DNA from: an uncultured delta proteobacterium
Lineage (GTDB): Bacteria > Desulfobacterota > Syntrophia > Syntrophales > Smithellaceae
Length of the DNA: 64,000 nt
NCBI GenBank assembly: GCA_963753975.1
Contig: CAVWEH010000005.1
Span: 256,001-320,000, forward strand
Direction of reading: 5' to 3'
The translations under genes and the position numbers were made by a program. The notes below the pieces were generated by a model, which worked only from the letters and a program-made list of their open reading frames with translations, had not been told where the DNA came from and searched no databases. This document shows positions 45,754 through 62,217 of the stretch, piece after piece (position 1 is the stretch's first letter; each line of letters starts with the position of its first letter).

Positions 45754-45836
45754 ATTCTCCAATGCAACGGTCTATATAGAATAGGTATAAATGATATCAA
45801 AGAGCAATGGCTATTTGATTTGATCGAAAGGTGCCT

Positions 45837-46817
45837 ATGAAAGAATATTCTCATAATTTTCTGCAGCAGCTATATAGAAGCATGCTGCGCATGAGAGCTT
45901 GTGAAGAAAGCCTCGTTGAACCGATCTTAAATCGCGAAATTCTTTGTCCGTGTCATCTTTATTCCGGCGAAGAGGCGATAGCTGCAGGCATTGGCGCTTC
46001 ACTGAACGTAAGGGATTACATCTTCAGTAATCATCGCGCACATGGTCATTTTTTAGCTAAAGGTGGATCTATGAATGCGATGGTTGCGGAAATTTATGGC
46101 CGAGAGCCCGGATGCTCCCATAGTAGAGGTGGGTCGATGCATCTTATTGATCCTGAGCATGGCATGCTGGGCTCAGCGCCAATTGTTTCCGGCACAATTT
46201 CTCTTGGCCTTGGTGCAGCTTTGGCAAGTGCCATCAGAAAAGATGATCGTGCAACGGTTGTCTTTTTCGGCGATGGTGCGGCAGGTGAAGGTGTGCTGTA
46301 TGAGTCCTTAAATTTTGCGGCGCTGATGAAACTTCCCATTACTTTTGTTTGCGAAAATAATTTTTACGCCACGCATATGCCGATACGTGATTGCCGCGTG
46401 CAAAATAATATCCGTACGATTGCGGATCCCTTCTGCATTGAGAATGCTGAAGTAGATGGCAATGATGTTCTGGCGGTCTATGAGGCAGGCAGTAAGGCTA
46501 TCGAAAAATGCAGGCGGGGCAACGGCCCTTTTTTTCTGGAATGTCTGACCTATCGATTACGGGGGCACGTGGGGCCGGACGATAACATTCAAGGCCTGCG
46601 CACTGACATTCGTCCTCCCGAAGAAGTTGAGAAATGGCGTAAGAAGGATCCGATTAATACTTATGAAGAATGCCTGCTTAATCACTACGCTTTTGATACG
46701 GAAACTTTGCGCAAAATAAAAATGGACGTGGATGCTGAAGTTGCTGCTGCGCATGCCTTTGCCAAAAGTAGTCCATACCCGGATCGAAAGGATTTACTCA
46801 ATAATGTCTTCCGCTAG
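45837..46817 (+). CDS. Thiamine-diphosphate-dependent dehydrogenase E1 alpha-like subunit
   Basis: HLYSGEEA, HRAHGH, GGSMH, GDGAAGEG...ENN TPP motif, TYRLRGH. Confidence 0.92.
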   Translation: MKEYSHNFLQQLYRSMLRMRACEESLVEPILNREILCPCHLYSGEEAIAAGIGASLNVRDYIFSNHRAHGHFLAKGGSMNAMVAEIYGREPGCSHSRGGSMHLIDPEHGMLGSAPIVSGTISLGLGAALASAIRKDDRATVVFFGDGAAGEGVLYESLNFAALMKLPITFVCENNFYATHMPIRDCRVQNNIRTIADPFCIENAEVDGNDVLAVYEAGSKAIEKCRRGNGPFFLECLTYRLRGHVGPDDNIQGLRTDIRPPEEVEKWRKKDPINTYEECLLNHYAFDTETLRKIKMDVDAEVAAAHAFAKSSPYPDRKDLLNNVFR

Positions 46818-47853
46818 AAAACTTCGCTACAGTCTGGCGATTAACGAGGCGTTTCATCAAATGATGGCCGCCGACGCTTCAGTTTTTCTAATGGGACAAG
46901 GAACGAAAAGCCCATGGTATGTCGGCAATACCGCGCAGGGCTTGTTAGACAGGTTCGGAAAATTACGGGTTATTGATACGCCCGTTTCTGAAAATGCAAT
47001 GACTGGGGCGGCTGTCGGGGCAGCTCTTGCTGGTATGAAGCCGATTATTGTTCATCCGCGCATGGATTTTATGCTTTATGCTTTCGATCCGATCATCAAT
47101 CAGGCGGCTAACTGGTACTATATGAACGGTGGCAAATTATCCGTGCCGGTGGTTATTTGGGGTATCATCAATCGCGGCGGTGAGCAGGCGGCGCAACACG
47201 CCCAGGCTTTACATGCCATGTTCGCGCATGTTCCGGGATTAAAGGTCGTAATGCCGGCCACACCTTATGATGCCAAGGGGCTAATGATTGCAGCAGTTCG
47301 TGATCCAAATCCGGTGGTTTACATCGATGATCGATTTTTATATAATGATGAAGGCATTGTCCCGGAAGATGCTTATGAAGTGGAAATCGGTAAAGGTATT
47401 ATTCGAAAAGAAGGTGCAGATGTAACAGTTGTCGCAATTTCATTAATGGCACGAGAGGCACTAAAAGCGGCTGGTAATTTGGCAAAAGAAGGCATTGATG
47501 TGGAGTGTATTGATCTTCGGACGGCAAAGCCCATCGATTGCGGTCTGATATTGGCTTCGGTTCAGAAAACGGGACGTTTAGTTGTTGCTGATGTCGGCTG
47601 GAAAACATGTGGTCTGGCGGCGGAAATATCGGCTATCGTTGCAGAACAGGCCTTTGAATATCTTAAAGCACCTATACAAAGAGTGGCGCTTCCCGACTGC
47701 CCTGCGCCTGCCAGTTCGGTTTTAGAAAAAGAATATTATAAAACACATGCGGATATTGAGCAGGCAATAAGACAATGCATGAAACAGAGGAAAGTGGACA
47801 CTCTGGTTCATCCATCAAGGATGGACAAACTCGTCTACATGAAACTCTTTTGA
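46804..47853 (+). CDS. TPP-dependent dehydrogenase E1 beta-like subunit
   Basis: DTPVSE, QHAQ, HVPGLKVV, YDAKGL, IDLRT, KTGRLVV, APIQRV. ATG 46804 overlaps the alpha stop. Confidence 0.92.
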   Translation: MSSARKLRYSLAINEAFHQMMAADASVFLMGQGTKSPWYVGNTAQGLLDRFGKLRVIDTPVSENAMTGAAVGAALAGMKPIIVHPRMDFMLYAFDPIINQAANWYYMNGGKLSVPVVIWGIINRGGEQAAQHAQALHAMFAHVPGLKVVMPATPYDAKGLMIAAVRDPNPVVYIDDRFLYNDEGIVPEDAYEVEIGKGIIRKEGADVTVVAISLMAREALKAAGNLAKEGIDVECIDLRTAKPIDCGLILASVQKTGRLVVADVGWKTCGLAAEISAIVAEQAFEYLKAPIQRVALPDCPAPASSVLEKEYYKTHADIEQAIRQCMKQRKVDTLVHPSRMDKLVYMKLF

Positions 47854-54810: not shown

Positions 54811-55053
54811 TGGCTTTATTGTATTCTATGGAATTCAAGAAATCAATTTTGGTAAAGCTCATGTTGGTGTCCATTTGTCTATATCCCATATTATCTTCTT
54901 CAATCACCTAAACTTTAGAGGAATTATGTCAGAAAATAACCTTCAAATCAATCAATATTGATAATTATATCAATATATTAGTGTTGACTACAATTTATTA
55001 CCGTAAATATGAGGATCACAGGTATAACGCCAAAGCAAGCTTTGGAAACATTT

Positions 55054-55409
55054 CGTAGCAAGCTGCGGGGTATTATACCCTCCGCATCGCGGGATAATTC
55101 GACCTCCAGTCTCAGCGGTGACGTGACCTTTAGGTTATGCACTCTGCTTCTGAAACTTGGGTATCATTGAAATAGTCCCACTTAGCTTCGCACGTGGGAT
55201 AATTTCCAATAGCCACCAGCTATTGGATAATTCGGCTAAAAAACTTCAATGCGCCTATAATGACCTTTAGGTTATTTGCTTTTGAAGTTTTAGTCTCATT
55301 ACAACTGACAGATATTACTGTACTGCGTTTGTGGAGCACCTCCGGAAGAAGCCGAAGGCTATTTTCAAAGACGCGACATCCCGTAACGGGATAATATCTG
55401 AGTTTCATT
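55054..55409 (+). repeat. Stack of family-A elements (two near-complete, two partial)
   Basis: gcaagctgcggggtat..cgggataattcgac..gtatcattga (55054-55170); ggataattcggc..agtctcatt (55225-55300); partial copies near 55175 and 55387; tgacctttaggtta occurs twice. Confidence 0.68.
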
Positions 55410-55518
55410 GGAATTGGAAGTTCACCAATAAAAAAGTTGAAGTTGCTGATTAGTTGTGCAAAAGTCTCGTATGATGAATAATAATATAACCGCACTAAAA
55501 TAATACAGAGGTGATTGA

Positions 55519-55878
55519 GTGCAAGTGAATCCTCATGCCGGGCGTCCAACGTCGCCTATGTCCTTGTTGCGTAGTCTCTGGCGCAACCGCCAACTCATCG
55601 CGCAAATGACCAAGCGCGAAGTAGTCGGTCGTTACAAGGGCTCGGTCCTGGGTATCGCCTGGTCATTCTTCAATCCCTTGATCATGCTTACCATCTATAC
55701 ATTTGTGTTCTCAGTTGTTTTCAAAGCCCGCTGGAATGTAAGTACTGATGAGACTAAAACGCAGTTTGCCATTGTGCTGTTTGTGGGCATGATCGTCCAT
55801 GGCCTTTTTGCCGAGGTGATCAACCGCGCACCAACGCTAATTACCTCTTTTGTAGAAGTGAGAAAATGCATCTTTTAA
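55519..55878 (+). pseudogene. wzm: Truncated Wzm (ABC-2 polysaccharide exporter permease), N-terminal ~110 aa only
   Basis: REVVGRYKGSVLGIAWSFFNPL...YTFVF; similarity stops after RAPTLITS and the usual NxNYVKKVVFP segment is missing; overlaps the next start. Confidence 0.85.
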
Positions 55879-56837
55879 AAAATACATTATTGAGTCGAAC
55901 TGTTCTCCTGATGATTTTATTTACCCTCTGTACTTGTGGACCGGGTGGCGATAAAGATAATAAAAAAAACAGTTCTCCGGGTACCATTCGCATATCGGGG
56001 GCTTGGGCGCTCTATCCCATGATGATTCGCTGGGCTGACGAATATAAAAAAACTCATCCGGGCTGTCAAATCGATGTCACTGCGGGCGGCGCCGGCAAAG
56101 GAGTAGCTGAAGCCCTTACAGGTCTGGTAGATATAGGCATGGTCTCCCGGGATATCAAACCCGAAGAAATACAGCGAGGCGCTAAATATATCCCTGTTGT
56201 CAAAGATGCTGTTTTCCCAATCATGAATGCGAACAATCCTGTCGCACGGGAAATGATGTTTAGGGGACTTACGAAGAAGCAATTCATCGGCCTTTGGATA
56301 GAGGGGAAAACGTTCACCTGGGGAGAATTAGCAAGTGTTACAAATGCTGCTATTGTTAATGTTTATACACGCTCTGATTCCTGTGGGGCAGCGGAAACAT
56401 GGGCGGCCTATCTGGGAAAACACCAGGAAGAGCTCCAGGGTGTAGGTGTTTATGGCGATCCCGGCATCACGGAAGCGGTAAAAAAAGACACGCTGGGTGT
56501 TGGATATAATAATCTGAACTATGCTTATGATATGAAAACGGGACTTCCGCAGAAAGGTGTCCGAATTATTCCCATCGACATCAATGAAAACGGACGGATT
56601 GATCCTGAAGAAGATGTAAGCACCAAAGAAAAAGCAATCCATGCAGTCCGTAAAGGACGCTACCCTTCGCCTCCGGCGCGCGACCTGAATATTGTTGTCA
56701 AAGGAAAATTTTCCGGAGCGGTTCGGGAATTTGTCCTCTGGATATTGAATGATGGGCAACAGTTCGTAGACGAAGTAGGCTATATCAAGCTCACTGATGC
56801 CCAAATCCAAGAAGCCTTCAGGAAGGTAAAAAATTGA
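55866..56837 (+). CDS. pstS: PstS-family periplasmic binding lipoprotein with atypical ligand residues
   Basis: Lipobox-like TLCTC; ISGAWALYP..WADEY, AGGAGKG, DIGMVSR, KDAV, TRSDSCGA, GYNN; first gene of a pstCAB-like set. Substrate uncertain. Confidence 0.82.
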   Translation: MHLLKNTLLSRTVLLMILFTLCTCGPGGDKDNKKNSSPGTIRISGAWALYPMMIRWADEYKKTHPGCQIDVTAGGAGKGVAEALTGLVDIGMVSRDIKPEEIQRGAKYIPVVKDAVFPIMNANNPVAREMMFRGLTKKQFIGLWIEGKTFTWGELASVTNAAIVNVYTRSDSCGAAETWAAYLGKHQEELQGVGVYGDPGITEAVKKDTLGVGYNNLNYAYDMKTGLPQKGVRIIPIDINENGRIDPEEDVSTKEKAIHAVRKGRYPSPPARDLNIVVKGKFSGAVREFVLWILNDGQQFVDEVGYIKLTDAQIQEAFRKVKN

Positions 56838-57733
56838 AGAAAATTATTTACAGAAATATAAAAAGCGTCGGCGCCGGAGCGCTGATCCGTTTTTCCCTTT
56901 TTCTGCTTTACGGGATTGCGTTCCTGATCCTGGTTATCATCGCAGTCAAAGCCGCACCGATTCTGAACTCAATATCTCTGAAGCAACTGCTGTTCTCATC
57001 GGTCTGGCATCCTGAACAGGGGCAATTCGGTTTTTTACCTTTCATTTTTGGCTCGCTTGCCGTCACCGCCCTTGCCATGACCTTTGCAATACCTATCTGT
57101 TTGATGAGCACCGTTTATATTACGGAATACATGAATCATCGTCTGCGCAAATGGATTCGTTTGTCGATTGATATTCTAGCTGGTATTCCTTCCGTTATTT
57201 TCGGCCTCTTCGGTGTGTTGGCGATTGTGCCGGCGGTCCGGTTGCTTGGCGAATTGACCGGCAGACCCAGCACCGGATATAGCCTCCTGGCTGCAGGTAT
57301 TATCTTGGCATTGATGGTGAGCCCATTTATTATTTCTTTGTCCATTGAAGTGCTGACAAACGTTCCCGGAGAAGTAAGGGAAAGCGCCATTTCCTTAGGA
57401 GCTACTCGATGGGAAGTTATTTGGCATGTCCTGCTGAAAACAGCATGGCCGGGAATTGTTGCTGCCGTTGTCCTTGGTTTGGCCAGGGCTATTGGCGAAA
57501 CGATGGCTGTGATGATGGTAGCGGGCAACGTTGCCAAGATTTCCGGTCATCTGCTTGATCCTGTATATCCTTTACCGGCTCTGATTGCCAACAACTATGG
57601 AGAGATGATGTCGATTCCGAAATATGACTCGGCTCTGATGTTTGCCGCTTTAATCCTTATGGTGATAGTTGGAGGGTTCAGCTTTGCTGCTTACATGATT
57701 CTTCCCCGAATGCACAGGAGATATTCTTTTTAA
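56834..57733 (+). CDS. pstC: PstC-like ABC permease
   Basis: WHP..GQFG.LP.I.GS, LAGIPSVIFG, SLGATRWE, ARAIGETMAV; TTGA overlap with the pstS stop. Confidence 0.9.
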   Translation: MKKIIYRNIKSVGAGALIRFSLFLLYGIAFLILVIIAVKAAPILNSISLKQLLFSSVWHPEQGQFGFLPFIFGSLAVTALAMTFAIPICLMSTVYITEYMNHRLRKWIRLSIDILAGIPSVIFGLFGVLAIVPAVRLLGELTGRPSTGYSLLAAGIILALMVSPFIISLSIEVLTNVPGEVRESAISLGATRWEVIWHVLLKTAWPGIVAAVVLGLARAIGETMAVMMVAGNVAKISGHLLDPVYPLPALIANNYGEMMSIPKYDSALMFAALILMVIVGGFSFAAYMILPRMHRRYSF

Positions 57734-58579
57734 ATGCTAAATCGTAAACAGCAAGAGATTTTTTTTAAGAGGTTGATGCAGCTTTCCTTGATTCTACTGC
57801 TTGGTCTGCTTGGCGGCATTGTTCTTGTGATATTACTCAGGGGGGCTTCCGCACTTAGTGTCTCCATGCTTATTGACACGCCAAAAGGAGGATATTACCT
57901 TGGTGGTGAAGGAGGGATTGCCAATGCAATTGCCGGTTCGCTGTGTCTTGCTTTTGGAGCATCTATATTAGCGCTGCTTTTCAGTCTGCCGGTTGCCTTT
58001 GCCTTGCAAAAAGAATATGCCAGTTCCCGCCTTGCCGCTATAAGCCGAATCGTCCTGGATGTCCTGTGGGGAACCCCTTCCATTGTTTACGGCGCTGTTG
58101 GCTTTGTGGTAATGGTCTATTTCGGTATTCGTGCCTCTCTGCTGGGCGGGATCTTCGTGCTGACCCTTCTGACCATGCCCATTATGATCCGCTCGATGGA
58201 AGAGATATTACACCTGGCTCCCAGGGAATTAAAGGAAATTGCCGTCTCGCTGGGCACGACGCGGTTGGAAACCGCCTGGATAGTTTTCAGGCAGGTTATT
58301 CCCGGTATAGTTACGGCCGTTATTCTCGCTTTCGGCCGGGCTATCGGAGATGCCGCATCAATCCTCTTTACGTCCGGATACACAGATAGTATGCCGCGCT
58401 CCCTGCTGGATCCGGTTGCTTCTTTACCGTTGGCCATCTTTTTCCAGATTGGAACACCCATCCCGGAAGTACAGGAACGGGCTTATGCTGCCGCGCTGGT
58501 TTTGCTTTTGATTGTCCTTATAGTCAATATTGCGGCAAGGATACTGAGTGAACGTTTCTCCAAGCACGTTATCCACTAG
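57734..58579 (+). CDS. pstA: PstA-like ABC permease
   Basis: GGIANAIAGS, TPSIVYG, SLGTTR, GRAIGDAA, AYAAALVL; ATG directly after the pstC TAA. Confidence 0.9.
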   Translation: MLNRKQQEIFFKRLMQLSLILLLGLLGGIVLVILLRGASALSVSMLIDTPKGGYYLGGEGGIANAIAGSLCLAFGASILALLFSLPVAFALQKEYASSRLAAISRIVLDVLWGTPSIVYGAVGFVVMVYFGIRASLLGGIFVLTLLTMPIMIRSMEEILHLAPRELKEIAVSLGTTRLETAWIVFRQVIPGIVTAVILAFGRAIGDAASILFTSGYTDSMPRSLLDPVASLPLAIFFQIGTPIPEVQERAYAAALVLLLIVLIVNIAARILSERFSKHVIH

Positions 58580-58590
58580 AAAATTAAATT

Positions 58591-59388
58591 ATGCCGCATA
58601 TACAATTACATAATCTATCTGTTCACTACGGCAATTTCCAAGTGCTCAACCAGATCACTCTCAATATTCCCGACCGCCAGATTGTGGCTATTATCGGTCC
58701 CTCCGGTTGCGGTAAAACGACATTGCTCAAGAGCATGAACCGGCTGCTGGATCTCTATGAAGAAGCAACACTAACCGGATCGGTAGTCATTGATGGAATA
58801 GATATTTATAATCCAGATGCCGATATTCTTGCCTTGCGGAAAAAGGTTGGTTTTCTTTCCCAGCGGCCTTATCCGCTACCTATGTCGATTTACAACAATG
58901 TCGCTTTCGGACCGAAGATTCACGGACTAAACGGCAAGGCAATATCCAAAAATTCAGCAACACCAATTTCCCAAAGTGCCGAATCCACAATAGATTATTG
59001 TGTCGAACACTATTTGCAACTTGCCGGTCTCTGGGACGAGGTGAAGGACCGCTTACATAGTCCTGCAGCGAAACTTTCCATTGGTCAGTTGCAGCGTCTG
59101 GCACTGGCCAGAACCCTGGCTGTGGAACCGGAGGTTATCCTCGCTGATGAACCCACCTCGGCATTAGATCCAATTTCCGCCAAGATTGTAGAGTCCCAGT
59201 TTAGAATCTTAAAACAGGACTATACCATTGTTGTTGTGACCCATATCCTTCGCCAGGCAAGACGCCTTGCCGATTACGTGGTTTTTATGTTTATGGGTGA
59301 AGTGGTGGAGTATGGACCAGCCGAAGATATATTCAATGCCCCGAAAGATGAACGGACACGGGCCTATATTTCAGGAGAAATCAGCTGA
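58591..59388 (+). CDS. pstB: PstB-like ABC ATPase
   Basis: GPSGCGKTT, PMSIYNNVAFG, LWDEVKDRL, LSIGQ signature, DEPTSALDP, VTH, YISG. Confidence 0.9.
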   Translation: MPHIQLHNLSVHYGNFQVLNQITLNIPDRQIVAIIGPSGCGKTTLLKSMNRLLDLYEEATLTGSVVIDGIDIYNPDADILALRKKVGFLSQRPYPLPMSIYNNVAFGPKIHGLNGKAISKNSATPISQSAESTIDYCVEHYLQLAGLWDEVKDRLHSPAAKLSIGQLQRLALARTLAVEPEVILADEPTSALDPISAKIVESQFRILKQDYTIVVVTHILRQARRLADYVVFMFMGEVVEYGPAEDIFNAPKDERTRAYISGEIS

Positions 59389-59389
59389 C

Positions 59390-60316
59390 ATGTCTTTTTA
59401 TAGTATGCCTTACCTGAAGCAGCTCGAATCGGAATCCATCTATATTCTGCGGGAAGTGGCCGCGGAATTTAAAAACCCTGTTTTGCTATACTCTGTGGGT
59501 AAGGACTCCAGCGTACTGGTGCGCCTGGCTCTAAAGGCTTTTTATCCCGGCAAGATTCCATTCCCCCTGATGCATGTAGATACCGGCTTCAAGTTTCCGG
59601 AAATGTATGCCTTTAGGGATGCTTTCTGCAAGAAGCTGGATGTCCGGCTGATTGTGGAGCGCAACGAGGAGTGGATTGCCAAAGGGTGTCATCCCCTCAA
59701 GATGGGTGTTGATAAATGTTGCAGCCATCTCAAGACCGGGGCATTGCTCACAGCCATTAAAAAACATGGCTTTGATGCGGCCATCGGCGGGGCAAGAAGA
59801 GAAGAAGAAAAATCACGAGCCAAAGAACGTGTCTTTTCCCTTCGGGATGCTTTCGGTCAGTGGGATCCGAAGAATCAGCGGCCGGAGGTCTGGGATCTAT
59901 ACAATACCCGTATTAATGAAGGAGAAACAGTGCGCGTCTTTCCTCTCAGCAACTGGACAGAAAAGGATATCTGGCAGTACATCAAACTGGAAAATATACC
60001 GGTTGTGCCCATCTATTTTGCCCTGGAGCGGAAAGTCGTCCGGCGTAACGGTATTTTGATTCCACTTTCGGCAGCGTCGGTAATTGACGAACATTCTGCT
60101 GGTCATACAGGGAGCGAACCGGTGGAAACAGTGCGCTGCCGTTTCCGAAGTCTGGGATGCATTCCTTGCACTGGAGCTATTGCTTCGACAGCGACGAGCA
60201 TTGACGAGATCATTGCAGAAGTTATCATGGCCAAAAAGTCCGAGCGGGAAAACCGTGTAATCGATTTAACCAGCGATGCCTCCATGGAACAAAAGAAGAA
60301 AGAGGGATACTTTTGA
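59390..60316 (+). CDS. cysD: Sulfate adenylyltransferase subunit 2
   Basis: LESESIYILRE, YSVGKDS, GGARREEEKSRAKER, WDPKNQRPE, RFRSLGC, MEQKKKEGYF. ATG lies 1 nt after the pstB stop. Confidence 0.96.
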   Translation: MSFYSMPYLKQLESESIYILREVAAEFKNPVLLYSVGKDSSVLVRLALKAFYPGKIPFPLMHVDTGFKFPEMYAFRDAFCKKLDVRLIVERNEEWIAKGCHPLKMGVDKCCSHLKTGALLTAIKKHGFDAAIGGARREEEKSRAKERVFSLRDAFGQWDPKNQRPEVWDLYNTRINEGETVRVFPLSNWTEKDIWQYIKLENIPVVPIYFALERKVVRRNGILIPLSAASVIDEHSAGHTGSEPVETVRCRFRSLGCIPCTGAIASTATSIDEIIAEVIMAKKSERENRVIDLTSDASMEQKKKEGYF

Positions 60317-62217
60317 CAACAACCAAGGAAAAAACTCTGCTGCGTTTTTCCACAACCGGTAGTGTGGACGATGGCAAGTCAACGCTGCTCGGGCGGCTGT
60401 TGTACGAAACAAAGACCATTTTCGAAGATCAGTATGCCGCTATAGAAAAAACCTCGCGAAAAAAGGGATTGGCCGAAGTTGACCTGGCGCTCCTTTTGGA
60501 TGGCTTGTCGGCGGAGCGGGAACAGGGAATTACGATTGATGTTGCCCATCGCTATTTCGAGACATCTTCAAGAAAGTTTATTATTACGGACAGCCCCGGT
60601 CATGTTCAATATACCAAAAATATGATCACCGGAGCTTCAACAGCCGACTGCGCCATTATTCTCATCGACGCTCGCAACGGCGTCCTTACCCAATCCAAAC
60701 GTCATGGATTCATTGTATCGCTCCTGCGGATTCCCCATTTGGTTGTGGCCATAAACAAGATGGATCTAGTGGAATATTCTGAAAATGTTTATAACCAAAT
60801 CGTCGAGCAATATACGGACTTTTCCGAAAAACTGGATATTCATGATATTGTCTTTATCCCGGTTTCCGCTCTCAAGGGCGACAATGTGGTGGAGAAAAGC
60901 AATAACATGCCCTGGTATGAAGGCGGCACGTTGCTCCATTATCTGGAGAATGTGCACGTTTCCGCCGACCGGAACCTGGTGGACTTCCGTTTTCCCGTTC
61001 AGTATGTTATCCGGCCGCATCAGGATTTCCGGGGCTTTGCCGGCAAGATTGTTTCCGGTACTTTGAGCCCGGGAGAGGAGATTGTCGTCCTTCCCTCGGG
61101 AAAAACGACGCGGGTGCGTTCTGTAGTAACCTATGATGGAGAACTATCAGAAGCCTTTGCCCCGCAATCTGTTGTGTTGACCTTCGAAGACGAGGTTGAC
61201 GTCAGCCGGGGCAATATGATCGTCAGGAAGAATAATCTTCCCCAGGTTGGAACGAGCTTTGAGGGCATGATCTGCTGGATGGATGATGTTCCCCTGTCCC
61301 TCAACAAGCCGTATCTTTTACAGCATACAACAAGGATTGTTAAAGCTTTTGTTTCCAGAATCGTTTATCTCGTGGATGTGAACAATCTCCATCGCCATCA
61401 GACAGAATCCCTCTCTCTTAACGATATCGGCCGGGTTGAGTTTGAAGTGACCTCGCCAATCTTTTGTGATCCTTATAAAATTAACCGTGGTACCGGCTGT
61501 TTTATTCTAATCGATCCCCTGACGCAGCACACAGTGGCGGCAGGTATGATTCGTGGTTTATCCCGAACAGTCGATGATATTGTTCCGAGAGATGAGAATA
61601 TATCGTCCAAGCAATACAAATCTCCGCACACGGTTTGGAGGGATTGGAACATTGATCGTCAGGCCAGGGAAGCCCGCAACCAGCACAAGGCCGCGGTGCT
61701 ATGGCTTACCGGATTATCCGGAGCGGGAAAATCAACTGTCGCCATGGCTCTGGAAAAAACACTTTTTCAATTAGGTTGCCAAACCATGCTTTTGGACGGG
61801 GATCAGCTTCGCCACGGCCTATCAGCAGATCTTGGATTTTCCGGAAAAGACCGGGAAGAAAATATCCACAGAGCTGCTCAAGTGGCGAGGTTGTTTTTCG
61901 AATCCGGGCATTTGGTCATTTGCACATTCATTTCTCCTTTTGCCAAAGACAGAGCCGTTGCCCGTTTACTAATTCCCGAAGGACGATTTTTTGAAATCTA
62001 TGTATCGTGCGATCTGGCTGTGTGCAAACGGCGTGATCCCAACGGATTATATGAGAAGGCCGTGCGTGGAGAAATTAAAAATTTTACCGGCGTATCATCA
62101 CCGTATGAAGCGCCGGATAATCCGGAAATCCTGTTGAATACAGATGTGCAGAGCGTAGAAGACAGCGTTGCCTGTATTATGGATATGCTGAAGAAGCGTG
62201 AAATTATAAGGCGCTAA
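60313..62217 (+). CDS. cysNC: Bifunctional sulfate adenylyltransferase subunit 1 / APS kinase (CysN/CysC, NodQ-like)
   Basis: GSVDDGKST, EREQGITIDVA, DSPGH, NKMD in the GTPase part; WLTGLSGAGKST, LDGD, DREEN, FISP, FTGVSSPYE in the kinase part. TTGA overlap with cysD. Confidence 0.96.
   Translation: MTTTKEKTLLRFSTTGSVDDGKSTLLGRLLYETKTIFEDQYAAIEKTSRKKGLAEVDLALLLDGLSAEREQGITIDVAHRYFETSSRKFIITDSPGHVQYTKNMITGASTADCAIILIDARNGVLTQSKRHGFIVSLLRIPHLVVAINKMDLVEYSENVYNQIVEQYTDFSEKLDIHDIVFIPVSALKGDNVVEKSNNMPWYEGGTLLHYLENVHVSADRNLVDFRFPVQYVIRPHQDFRGFAGKIVSGTLSPGEEIVVLPSGKTTRVRSVVTYDGELSEAFAPQSVVLTFEDEVDVSRGNMIVRKNNLPQVGTSFEGMICWMDDVPLSLNKPYLLQHTTRIVKAFVSRIVYLVDVNNLHRHQTESLSLNDIGRVEFEVTSPIFCDPYKINRGTGCFILIDPLTQHTVAAGMIRGLSRTVDDIVPRDENISSKQYKSPHTVWRDWNIDRQAREARNQHKAAVLWLTGLSGAGKSTVAMALEKTLFQLGCQTMLLDGDQLRHGLSADLGFSGKDREENIHRAAQVARLFFESGHLVICTFISPFAKDRAVARLLIPEGRFFEIYVSCDLAVCKRRDPNGLYEKAVRGEIKNFTGVSSPYEAPDNPEILLNTDVQSVEDSVACIMDMLKKREIIRR

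Follow-up and report, generated by a model that had tools for sequence, protein, structure and literature searches.

What does a Pst-type transporter carry when its genes run straight into those of sulfate activation? The question is raised by a six-gene block, pstS*-pstC*-pstA*-pstB*-cysD-cysNC (Table 1), on G000:C5:256001-320000, a 64-kb stretch of DNA (the window) from a 2.43-Mb genome that is 95% complete; the nearest named homologues belong to the Smithellaceae. CysD and CysN make adenosine 5'-phosphosulfate (APS), and the fused kinase makes 3'-phosphoadenosine 5'-phosphosulfate (PAPS). The name Pst* is used here for the clade of these Pst-derived genes. A first-pass annotation had proposed that the ATP-binding cassette (ABC) transporter of this block imports sulfate, and every computational check it suggested supported that reading, in which the substrate is one that we infer. 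The block is probably an ATP-driven sulfate importer that here feeds PAPS synthesis. Comparative support for sulfate import by Pst* appears good across the sequences.

All six genes and their five junctions, as first described, were confirmed in the sequence and the list of open reading frames (ORFs). The junctions are a TTGA overlap between pstS* and pstC*, TAAATG between pstC* and pstA*, an 11-nt gap between pstA* and pstB*, a cysD start codon (ATG, 59390) directly behind the pstB* stop (59388), and a TTGA overlap between cysD and cysNC. The tight packing of pstB* and cysD is not due to chance, since among 22 related loci holding cysD, 10 likewise have a gap of 0-2 nt or a short overlap there. 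A longer cysD frame from TTG 59267 was rejected, as homologues align from ATG 59390. Against L013, the closest related locus, the ratio of nonsynonymous to synonymous substitution rates was 0.07-0.18 for the five block genes other than pstC*, and a promoter and terminator scan upstream of pstS* gave nothing decisive. The best NCBIfam models of all four transporter proteins are Pst models, with only PstC* above cut-off (PstS* reaches 105.7 bits against a cut-off of 206.6). On the permeases the CysT/W models score 25-48 bits against 174-244 bits for the Pst models, and the Sbp model gave no match to PstS*. A lipobox-like Cys was seen by eye at residue 24 of PstS*.

By alignment, the binding protein departs from phosphate carriers where phosphate is held. 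In the S-type PstS of Clostridium perfringens, PBP-1, the phosphate ligands are described as Ser11, Thr12, Ser13, Ser41, Ser59, Arg125, Ser129, Gly130 and Thr131, with Ser13 as a proposed proton acceptor (PMC5381212). By alignment, Ser11, Thr12, Ser13, Ser41, Ser129 and Thr131 correspond to Ala46, Trp47, Ala48, Ala76, Cys173 and Ala175 of PstS*, and Ser59 (Ser94), Arg125 (Arg169) and Gly130 (Gly174) are kept; six of the seven Ser/Thr residues gripping phosphate are thus replaced and one hydroxyl residue remains. S-type PstS is said to depend on a Thr/Ser within its Asp-Arg-Thr triad, and neither of the two proteins assayed in that work responded to sulfate (PMC13614923). Both proton-acceptor Thr/Ser positions are Ala in PstS* (Ala48 and Ala175), and Ser94 occupies the position of the low-barrier Asp, so that no Asp is found there; the invariant Asp114 and Arg272 are taken, by alignment, as the putative triad pair. 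The site residues occur in 82-83 of 83 loci at each position, in a scan seeded with two of the scored motifs. A metagenome sample (80 loci in 32 clusters, many short) was seeded elsewhere in the protein, away from the site motifs, and it gave Ala46, Phe/Trp47, Ala48 and Ala76 in 31 clusters each and Ala175 in 32. Position 173 was Cys in 82 of the 83 loci and Cys, Ala or Ser in 26, 5 and 1 of the clusters, respectively. The site is less strictly conserved in 93 distant representatives of full length, of which 3 keep Thr12, 14 keep Thr131 and 46 keep Ser129. In Salmonella Sbp, sulfate is described as held by seven hydrogen bonds, involving Ser130, Gly131 and Trp192 (PMC7177696), and a site of backbone NH groups and few hydroxyls, as predicted for PstS*, would by analogy fit sulfate.

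The overall fold remains that of PstS. An AlphaFold2 model of PstS* (predicted local distance difference test score 87) adopts it, and the top 13 rows of the structure comparison were phosphate-binding proteins with Z of 19-27. The S-type proteins (C. perfringens PBP-1, PDB 4Q8R/4GD5; Synechocystis SphX) are the best match in both sequence and structure (E 8.8e-20, Z 26.1), from which PstS* differs by the six replacements, by an identity of only about 25-28% and by its separate clade. With E. coli PstSCAB (PDB 9K3S/9K3X) the block shares the gene order S-C-A-B and the heterodimeric permease, as well as the equivalents of PstC Arg237 and Glu241 and PstA Arg220, the residues described for the membrane site (PMC12976172). 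In PstC* these are R218 and E222, each kept in 82 of 83 loci, and in PstA* the residue is R202, kept in 82 of 82 (the control sets for the permease counts mix PstA and PstC). The block differs from the E. coli system in that PstA Glu224 is Asp in 82 of 82 sequences, with GDAAS in place of the canonical GETAP, and further in its binding site, where the low-barrier Asp and most hydroxyls are missing, in its regulatory setting and in its sulfur-gene linkage.

The first-pass annotation had remarked on the lack of phoU, phoBR and a Pho box. The block indeed lacks phoU and phoBR, and the PhoU-domain matches of the genome all lie on contigs other than that of the block. A separate canonical locus, phoB-pstSCAB-phoU-phoR with phoB-like and phoR-like ends, is present on contig C4 (L002:6973-13938), and its PstS passes PRK10918 and TIGR00975. 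A Pho-box pattern matched the window 4 times against a chance mean of 3.6, never upstream of pstS*, which bears out the absence of a Pho box at the block; two tandem Pho-box-like matches were found 54-82 nt upstream of the canonical pstS. In one query, this D-type pst-pho locus was found in 6 of 61 relatives and may be a recent gain.

The gene neighbourhood was surveyed with our own profiles in the best 80 of 575 confirmed Pst* loci. Neither phoU nor phoB was found in any of them, and cysD occurred in 22, sat in 3, a sulfotransferase gene in 7, TauE in 3 and Rrf2 in 28. Activation genes were present in 25 loci (CysDN in 22, the unrelated Sat in 3), and in 24 of the 56 loci whose sequence runs 3 kb or more past pstB*. 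If Sbp is included, 32 of 80 loci hold a sulfur marker, and 54 do so with Rrf2 counted. The 80 loci are kin, and the activation label needs 10 changes on their tree, at least 4 of them forced. As a control, the best-scoring PstB region was taken from 40 of 50 searched carrier genomes, of which one proved to be Pst* and was dropped. The remaining 39 canonical pstB loci held phoU in 34 cases and phoB in 17, with no sulfur marker and no Rrf2. At least 39 of the 50 carrier genomes have a separate canonical pstB locus; Sat or CysD was found in 47 of the 50, and canonical Sbp above cut-off in 1.

What had been noticed at a single locus recurs elsewhere, with repeated linkage to genes of sulfate activation or reduction and phoU beside Pst* in 0 of 170 loci (0/80 in the main survey, 0/10 in a 133-genome phylum and 0/80 in the metagenome sample). 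Sulfur neighbours were found in 7 of the 32 metagenome clusters, a cysH-like gene directly following pstB* in 2. The Bacteroidota-like members, sampled through metagenomes, adjoin cysH, cysDN and sulfite reductase. At L208 a cysD-cysN-cysH-thioredoxin-sulfite reductase run precedes pstS*, and at L223 the pst* genes are split around cysD-cysN-cysH (pstC-pstA-cysD-cysN-cysH-pstS*). In three Chloroflexota loci (L038, L072, L080) an Sbp homologue lies directly after pstB* (1SBP, E 2.6e-35). A reading of these three as counter-examples was rejected, because their additional binding protein is this Sbp homologue, though they also show a weak match to a Na/Pi cotransporter. Apparent phoR/phoB matches near five Chloroflexota loci in a loose BLAST search disappeared with a stricter profile (0/80).

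Further features of these neighbourhoods were noted. After pstB* in L038 (13595-15813), L072 and L080, an N-terminally membrane-anchored Sbp homologue, a weak Na/Pi-cotransporter-like protein and Usp are encoded, possibly a second sulfate carrier. The Rrf2 genes before pst* (L015:8298-8816 and 27 other loci) encode 3-6 Cys in 21 of 27 shown and no C-terminal Cys in 6 of 27; for the relatives' Rrf2, CymR was the best named model in 4 of 4 tested, below cut-off, and no Rrf2 gene lies beside the block studied. In L122-L127, from one phylum, the genes ahead of pst* encode porin O/P and a sigma-54 activator, the latter divergent, and other loci have an alginate-export-type porin gene after pstB*. 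In L016 (13603-14874) and five similar Syntrophorhabdaceae-type loci, a gene of the PF01663 phosphodiesterase family lies between pstB* and cysD, and no fused APS kinase is found there.

Further evidence comes from the gene that stands in the place of Pst* in relatives. A survey of the slot before cysD in this genome and 60 relatives (61 genomes) found PstS* in 6 and cysD in 12. In all six PstS* carriers cysD-cysNC follows pstB* directly, and in the other six cysD genomes a TSUP/TauE gene of 250-270 residues directly precedes cysD; Pst* and a TSUP slot gene were found together in 0 of 61 genomes. A seventh relative has a partial TSUP gene at a contig end and no cysD match. The gene before the slot encodes the same epimerase-like protein in the four TSUP and two Pst* loci compared (49-71% identity). 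On a CysD+CysN tree of 22 rows the slot label changes six times, at least five of the changes being forced by well-supported branches, and a single change was found in 0 of 200 bootstrap trees. Overlapping function follows whether one gene displaced the other several times or an ancestor had both and one of them was lost several times. CysZ of Corynebacterium glutamicum, a TSUP member (PMC5840216), is described as behaving genetically as a high-affinity sulfate transporter (PMC1266029). Its cluster, cysIXHDNYZ, shares with the block a transporter joined to cysDN, although CysZ is a single secondary carrier without ABC parts, and the relatives' TSUP proteins are likened to it by family only.

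Based on these comparisons, a mechanism can be proposed. PstS* would hold fully ionised sulfate mainly by backbone NH groups, Ser94 and Arg169, possibly with Trp47 and Cys173, the hydroxyls that accept the proton of phosphate having presumably been lost. PstC* and PstA* would pass the anion between two retained arginines, and PstB* would power the transport cycle. PAPS may then reach the sulfotransferases encoded 6-9 kb downstream (two above the Pfam cut-off, a third below) and serve a sulfated surface glycan. Profile searches of the genome found no members of the Sbp, SulP, DASS, Sat or sulfite-reductase families; PF01507 matched cysD and one weak further candidate, and four TauE-family matches and one PiT lie elsewhere. 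Since sulfite reductase was not found, PAPS in this genome is most likely used for sulfation rather than reduced.

Several observations weigh against sulfate as the substrate. No sulfur marker was found in 48 of the 80 loci, other than Rrf2 in 22 of those 48. The ten further loci from the 133-genome phylum, which includes a KSB1-labelled carrier, showed one Rrf2 and no cys gene, many of them on short contigs. Across that phylum ATP sulfurylase is widespread whether or not Pst* is present (11 of 13 versus 85 of 120 genomes, a tally that includes the unpublished genomes G235 and G238), so that genome-wide co-occurrence of the two says little there. The TSUP family includes exporters, so that import by the slot partner is presumptive. 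The fold of PstS* is that of PstS (Z 26) and not that of the Sbp SubI (Z 13.9), and the arginines of the membrane phosphate site are retained in PstC* and PstA*. Porin O/P occurs at some loci, a weak Na/Pi-cotransporter match at three and a PiT fragment at L242, and five Pst* carriers among the relatives gave no match to the canonical PstS of this genome in one query. Finally, the PstS* position equivalent to Sbp Ser130 is mostly Cys, and a Ser130-to-Cys change reportedly weakens sulfate binding in Salmonella Sbp.

It is unlikely, given the partners of the transporter, that Pst* carries another sulfur oxyanion (thiosulfate, sulfite or an organosulfate) or accepts a wide range of sulfate, thiosulfate and selenate. 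Cys173, which is conserved and may take part in such binding, is found in 82 of 83 and 26 of 32 sequences; Rrf2 heads 28 of 80 loci, most of them without cys genes; and, were PstS* to bind sulfate alone, the Sbp-type second binding protein of three loci would be superfluous. C. glutamicum CysZ is likewise described as needed for both sulfate and sulfite (PMC1266029). However, the recurrent partners, namely the ATP sulfurylases (CysDN, Sat), APS kinase and CysH, act on sulfate, and thiosulfate or sulfite would not feed CysDN directly, as sulfite reductase was not found in the genome. Moreover, Cys173 is replaced by Ala or Ser in 6 of the 32 clusters.

A phosphate importer that has remained one, independent of PhoU and of lower affinity, with cysDNC attached through the ATP and phosphate demand of PAPS synthesis or by hitch-hiking, is less probable still. 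It would accommodate the fold, the Pst models, the retained permease residues, the nearby porin O/P and occasional Na/Pi or PiT genes, and the carriers in which no other Pst was seen. It would leave unaccounted for the loss of six of seven hydroxyl ligands and of every known proton acceptor, the contrast of 0/170 with 34/39 for phoU, the lack of a Pho-box-like match, the separate canonical pstB locus of most carriers, and the repeated exchange with TSUP. Being descended from Pst but parting from it in binding site and regulon, Pst* is not to be filed as a phosphate importer. A role as a molybdate or tungstate importer or a general oxyanion pump is very improbable, for although a second ABC set, which includes a TOBE-domain gene, lies close to the member found in Natrononativus amylolyticus and chromate-transporter genes follow pstB* in two loci, ModA and TupA match the structure far less well (Z about 15), molybdenum-cofactor genes do not recur in the neighbourhoods, the gene directly upstream in N. 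amylolyticus bears the annotation 'putative sulfate exporter family transporter', and chromate is a sulfate analogue.

Sulfate import by Pst* would extend well beyond this genome. Of 8000 candidates, 7996 scored E <= 1e-20, and 290 clusters at 50% identity reach 1e-30. In a quick maximum-likelihood tree, which carries a long-branch warning, a single branch separates 93 PstS* rows from 32 canonical PstS (Shimodaira-Hasegawa-like approximate likelihood-ratio support 98, stem 1.53). Members were found in Thermodesulfobacteriota, Chloroflexota, Aminicenantes, Planctomycetota, NC10, Acidobacteriota, Bathyarchaeia and methanotrophic archaea; cultured carriers are Bacteroides sp. OM05-12 and AF16-49, with a distant member in N. 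amylolyticus. The view of the transporter as a repurposed Pst paralogue stands as to its Pst descent, though it belongs to a large clade of many bacterial phyla and archaea and is no local paralogue. Similarly, the label of PAPS-supply module suits this genome, but PAPS supply is only one setting, others being assimilatory reduction and Rrf2-headed operons.

On balance it seems likely that ABC importers of sulfate evolved a second time, independently, as the Pst* family, from a phosphate pump whose binding protein was stripped of its proton-accepting hydroxyls. By the same proposal, many anaerobic bacteria and archaea without CysPUWA, gut Bacteroidales included, use Pst* as their high-affinity sulfate importer; Pst* has repeatedly been swapped with a TSUP carrier before cysDN, and databases and metagenome surveys count it as phosphate uptake. 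With the SulT system (Sbp/CysP-CysUWA; TC 3.A.1.6; PDB 1SBP) it shares the proposed role, the proposed binding logic (a Trp, few hydroxyls from side chains and S/C-G-A-A, a motif of small residues) and the linkage to sulfate activation or assimilation (25/80 loci, 6/6 close relatives and further cysH/sir loci). Pst* would work like SulT, yet it is no SulT member and not an orthologue: the Sbp, CysT/W and CysA models fall far below the Pst models, and the structures of Sbp come low in the ranking. Searches of the open literature by titles and abstract starts gave no description of the clade (TCDB, subscription journals and supplements lay outside this scope), and PMC5840216, in the part consulted, lists five sulfate transporter families with no 'pst' term. 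If the proposal is true, it supplies a missing sulfate uptake route in anaerobes without the textbook ABC importer and a case in which specificity switched naturally from phosphate to sulfate on the scaffold of PstS, a classic model of anion selectivity; counts of phosphate uptake would then be inflated by thousands of genes that bear the name 'phosphate ABC transporter'.

Table 1. Coordinates of the six-gene block and adjoining features, in positions of the window
Feature	Position	Strand	Description
wzm (ABC-2 permease) 5' end, duplicated	55481..55847	+	357/369 nt identical (97%) to C5:331378-331746; PF01061 partial
pstS*	55866..56837	+	binding protein, PstS fold, remodelled anion site (A46, W47, A48, A76, S94, R169, C173, G174, A175)
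pstC*	56834..57733	+	permease; TIGR02138 244 bits, above cut-off
pstA*	57734..58579	+	permease; best model Pst, 174.2 bits against cut-off 193.45
pstB*	58591..59388	+	ATPase; TIGR00972 310.7 bits, under cut-off 343.2
AGGAG	59373..59377	+	Shine-Dalgarno-like site for cysD, within pstB* 3' end
cysD	59390..60316	+	ATP sulfurylase small subunit; TIGR02039 449.7 bits, above cut-off; sole copy found in genome
cysNC	60313..62217	+	GTPase subunit fused to APS kinase; NF004035 906 bits and TIGR00455, both above cut-off; PF01583

The block had also been placed within a surface-glycan locus, and glycan genes do lie on both flanks. Upstream are heptosyltransferase genes, and downstream are DUF6077, glycosyltransferase, flippase and sulfotransferase genes followed by wzm/wzt beyond the window. 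The 6.4-kb block behaves as a movable cassette, as judged from the sequence of L013, the closest related locus, in which 6.4 kb, beginning at the pstS* start and ending shortly after cysNC, are 89% identical in nucleotides and the flanks differ. The wzm fragment abuts pstS* in place of the leader present at L013, and its source gene lies about 20 kb downstream of pstS*. Mis-assembly was judged an unlikely source of this duplicate, as the two copies differ at 12 of 369 positions. A short ORF of the fragment (55519-55878) overlaps the pstS* start by 13 nt and could supply translation by coupling.

Several minor features were also recorded. The full wzm copy (L001:13417-14254) is split by a frameshift near codons 146-150, either real or a sequencing error. 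The cassette lies between wzm and wzt in L033, and wzm lies behind cysNC in L013. Directly 5' of the wzm fragment, at about 55014-55433 of the window, is a dispersed non-coding repeat, of which five contigs together carry dozens of partial copies, resembling a miniature inverted-repeat transposable element or a repetitive extragenic palindrome. On another contig (G000:C2:697591-699166) two tandem PBP_like_2 binding proteins are encoded beside an ABC ATPase, probably of the tungstate/molybdate type. Within the glycan locus, a gene pair resembling the alpha and beta subunits of pyruvate dehydrogenase E1 was recognised by eye at 45831-47853 of the window.

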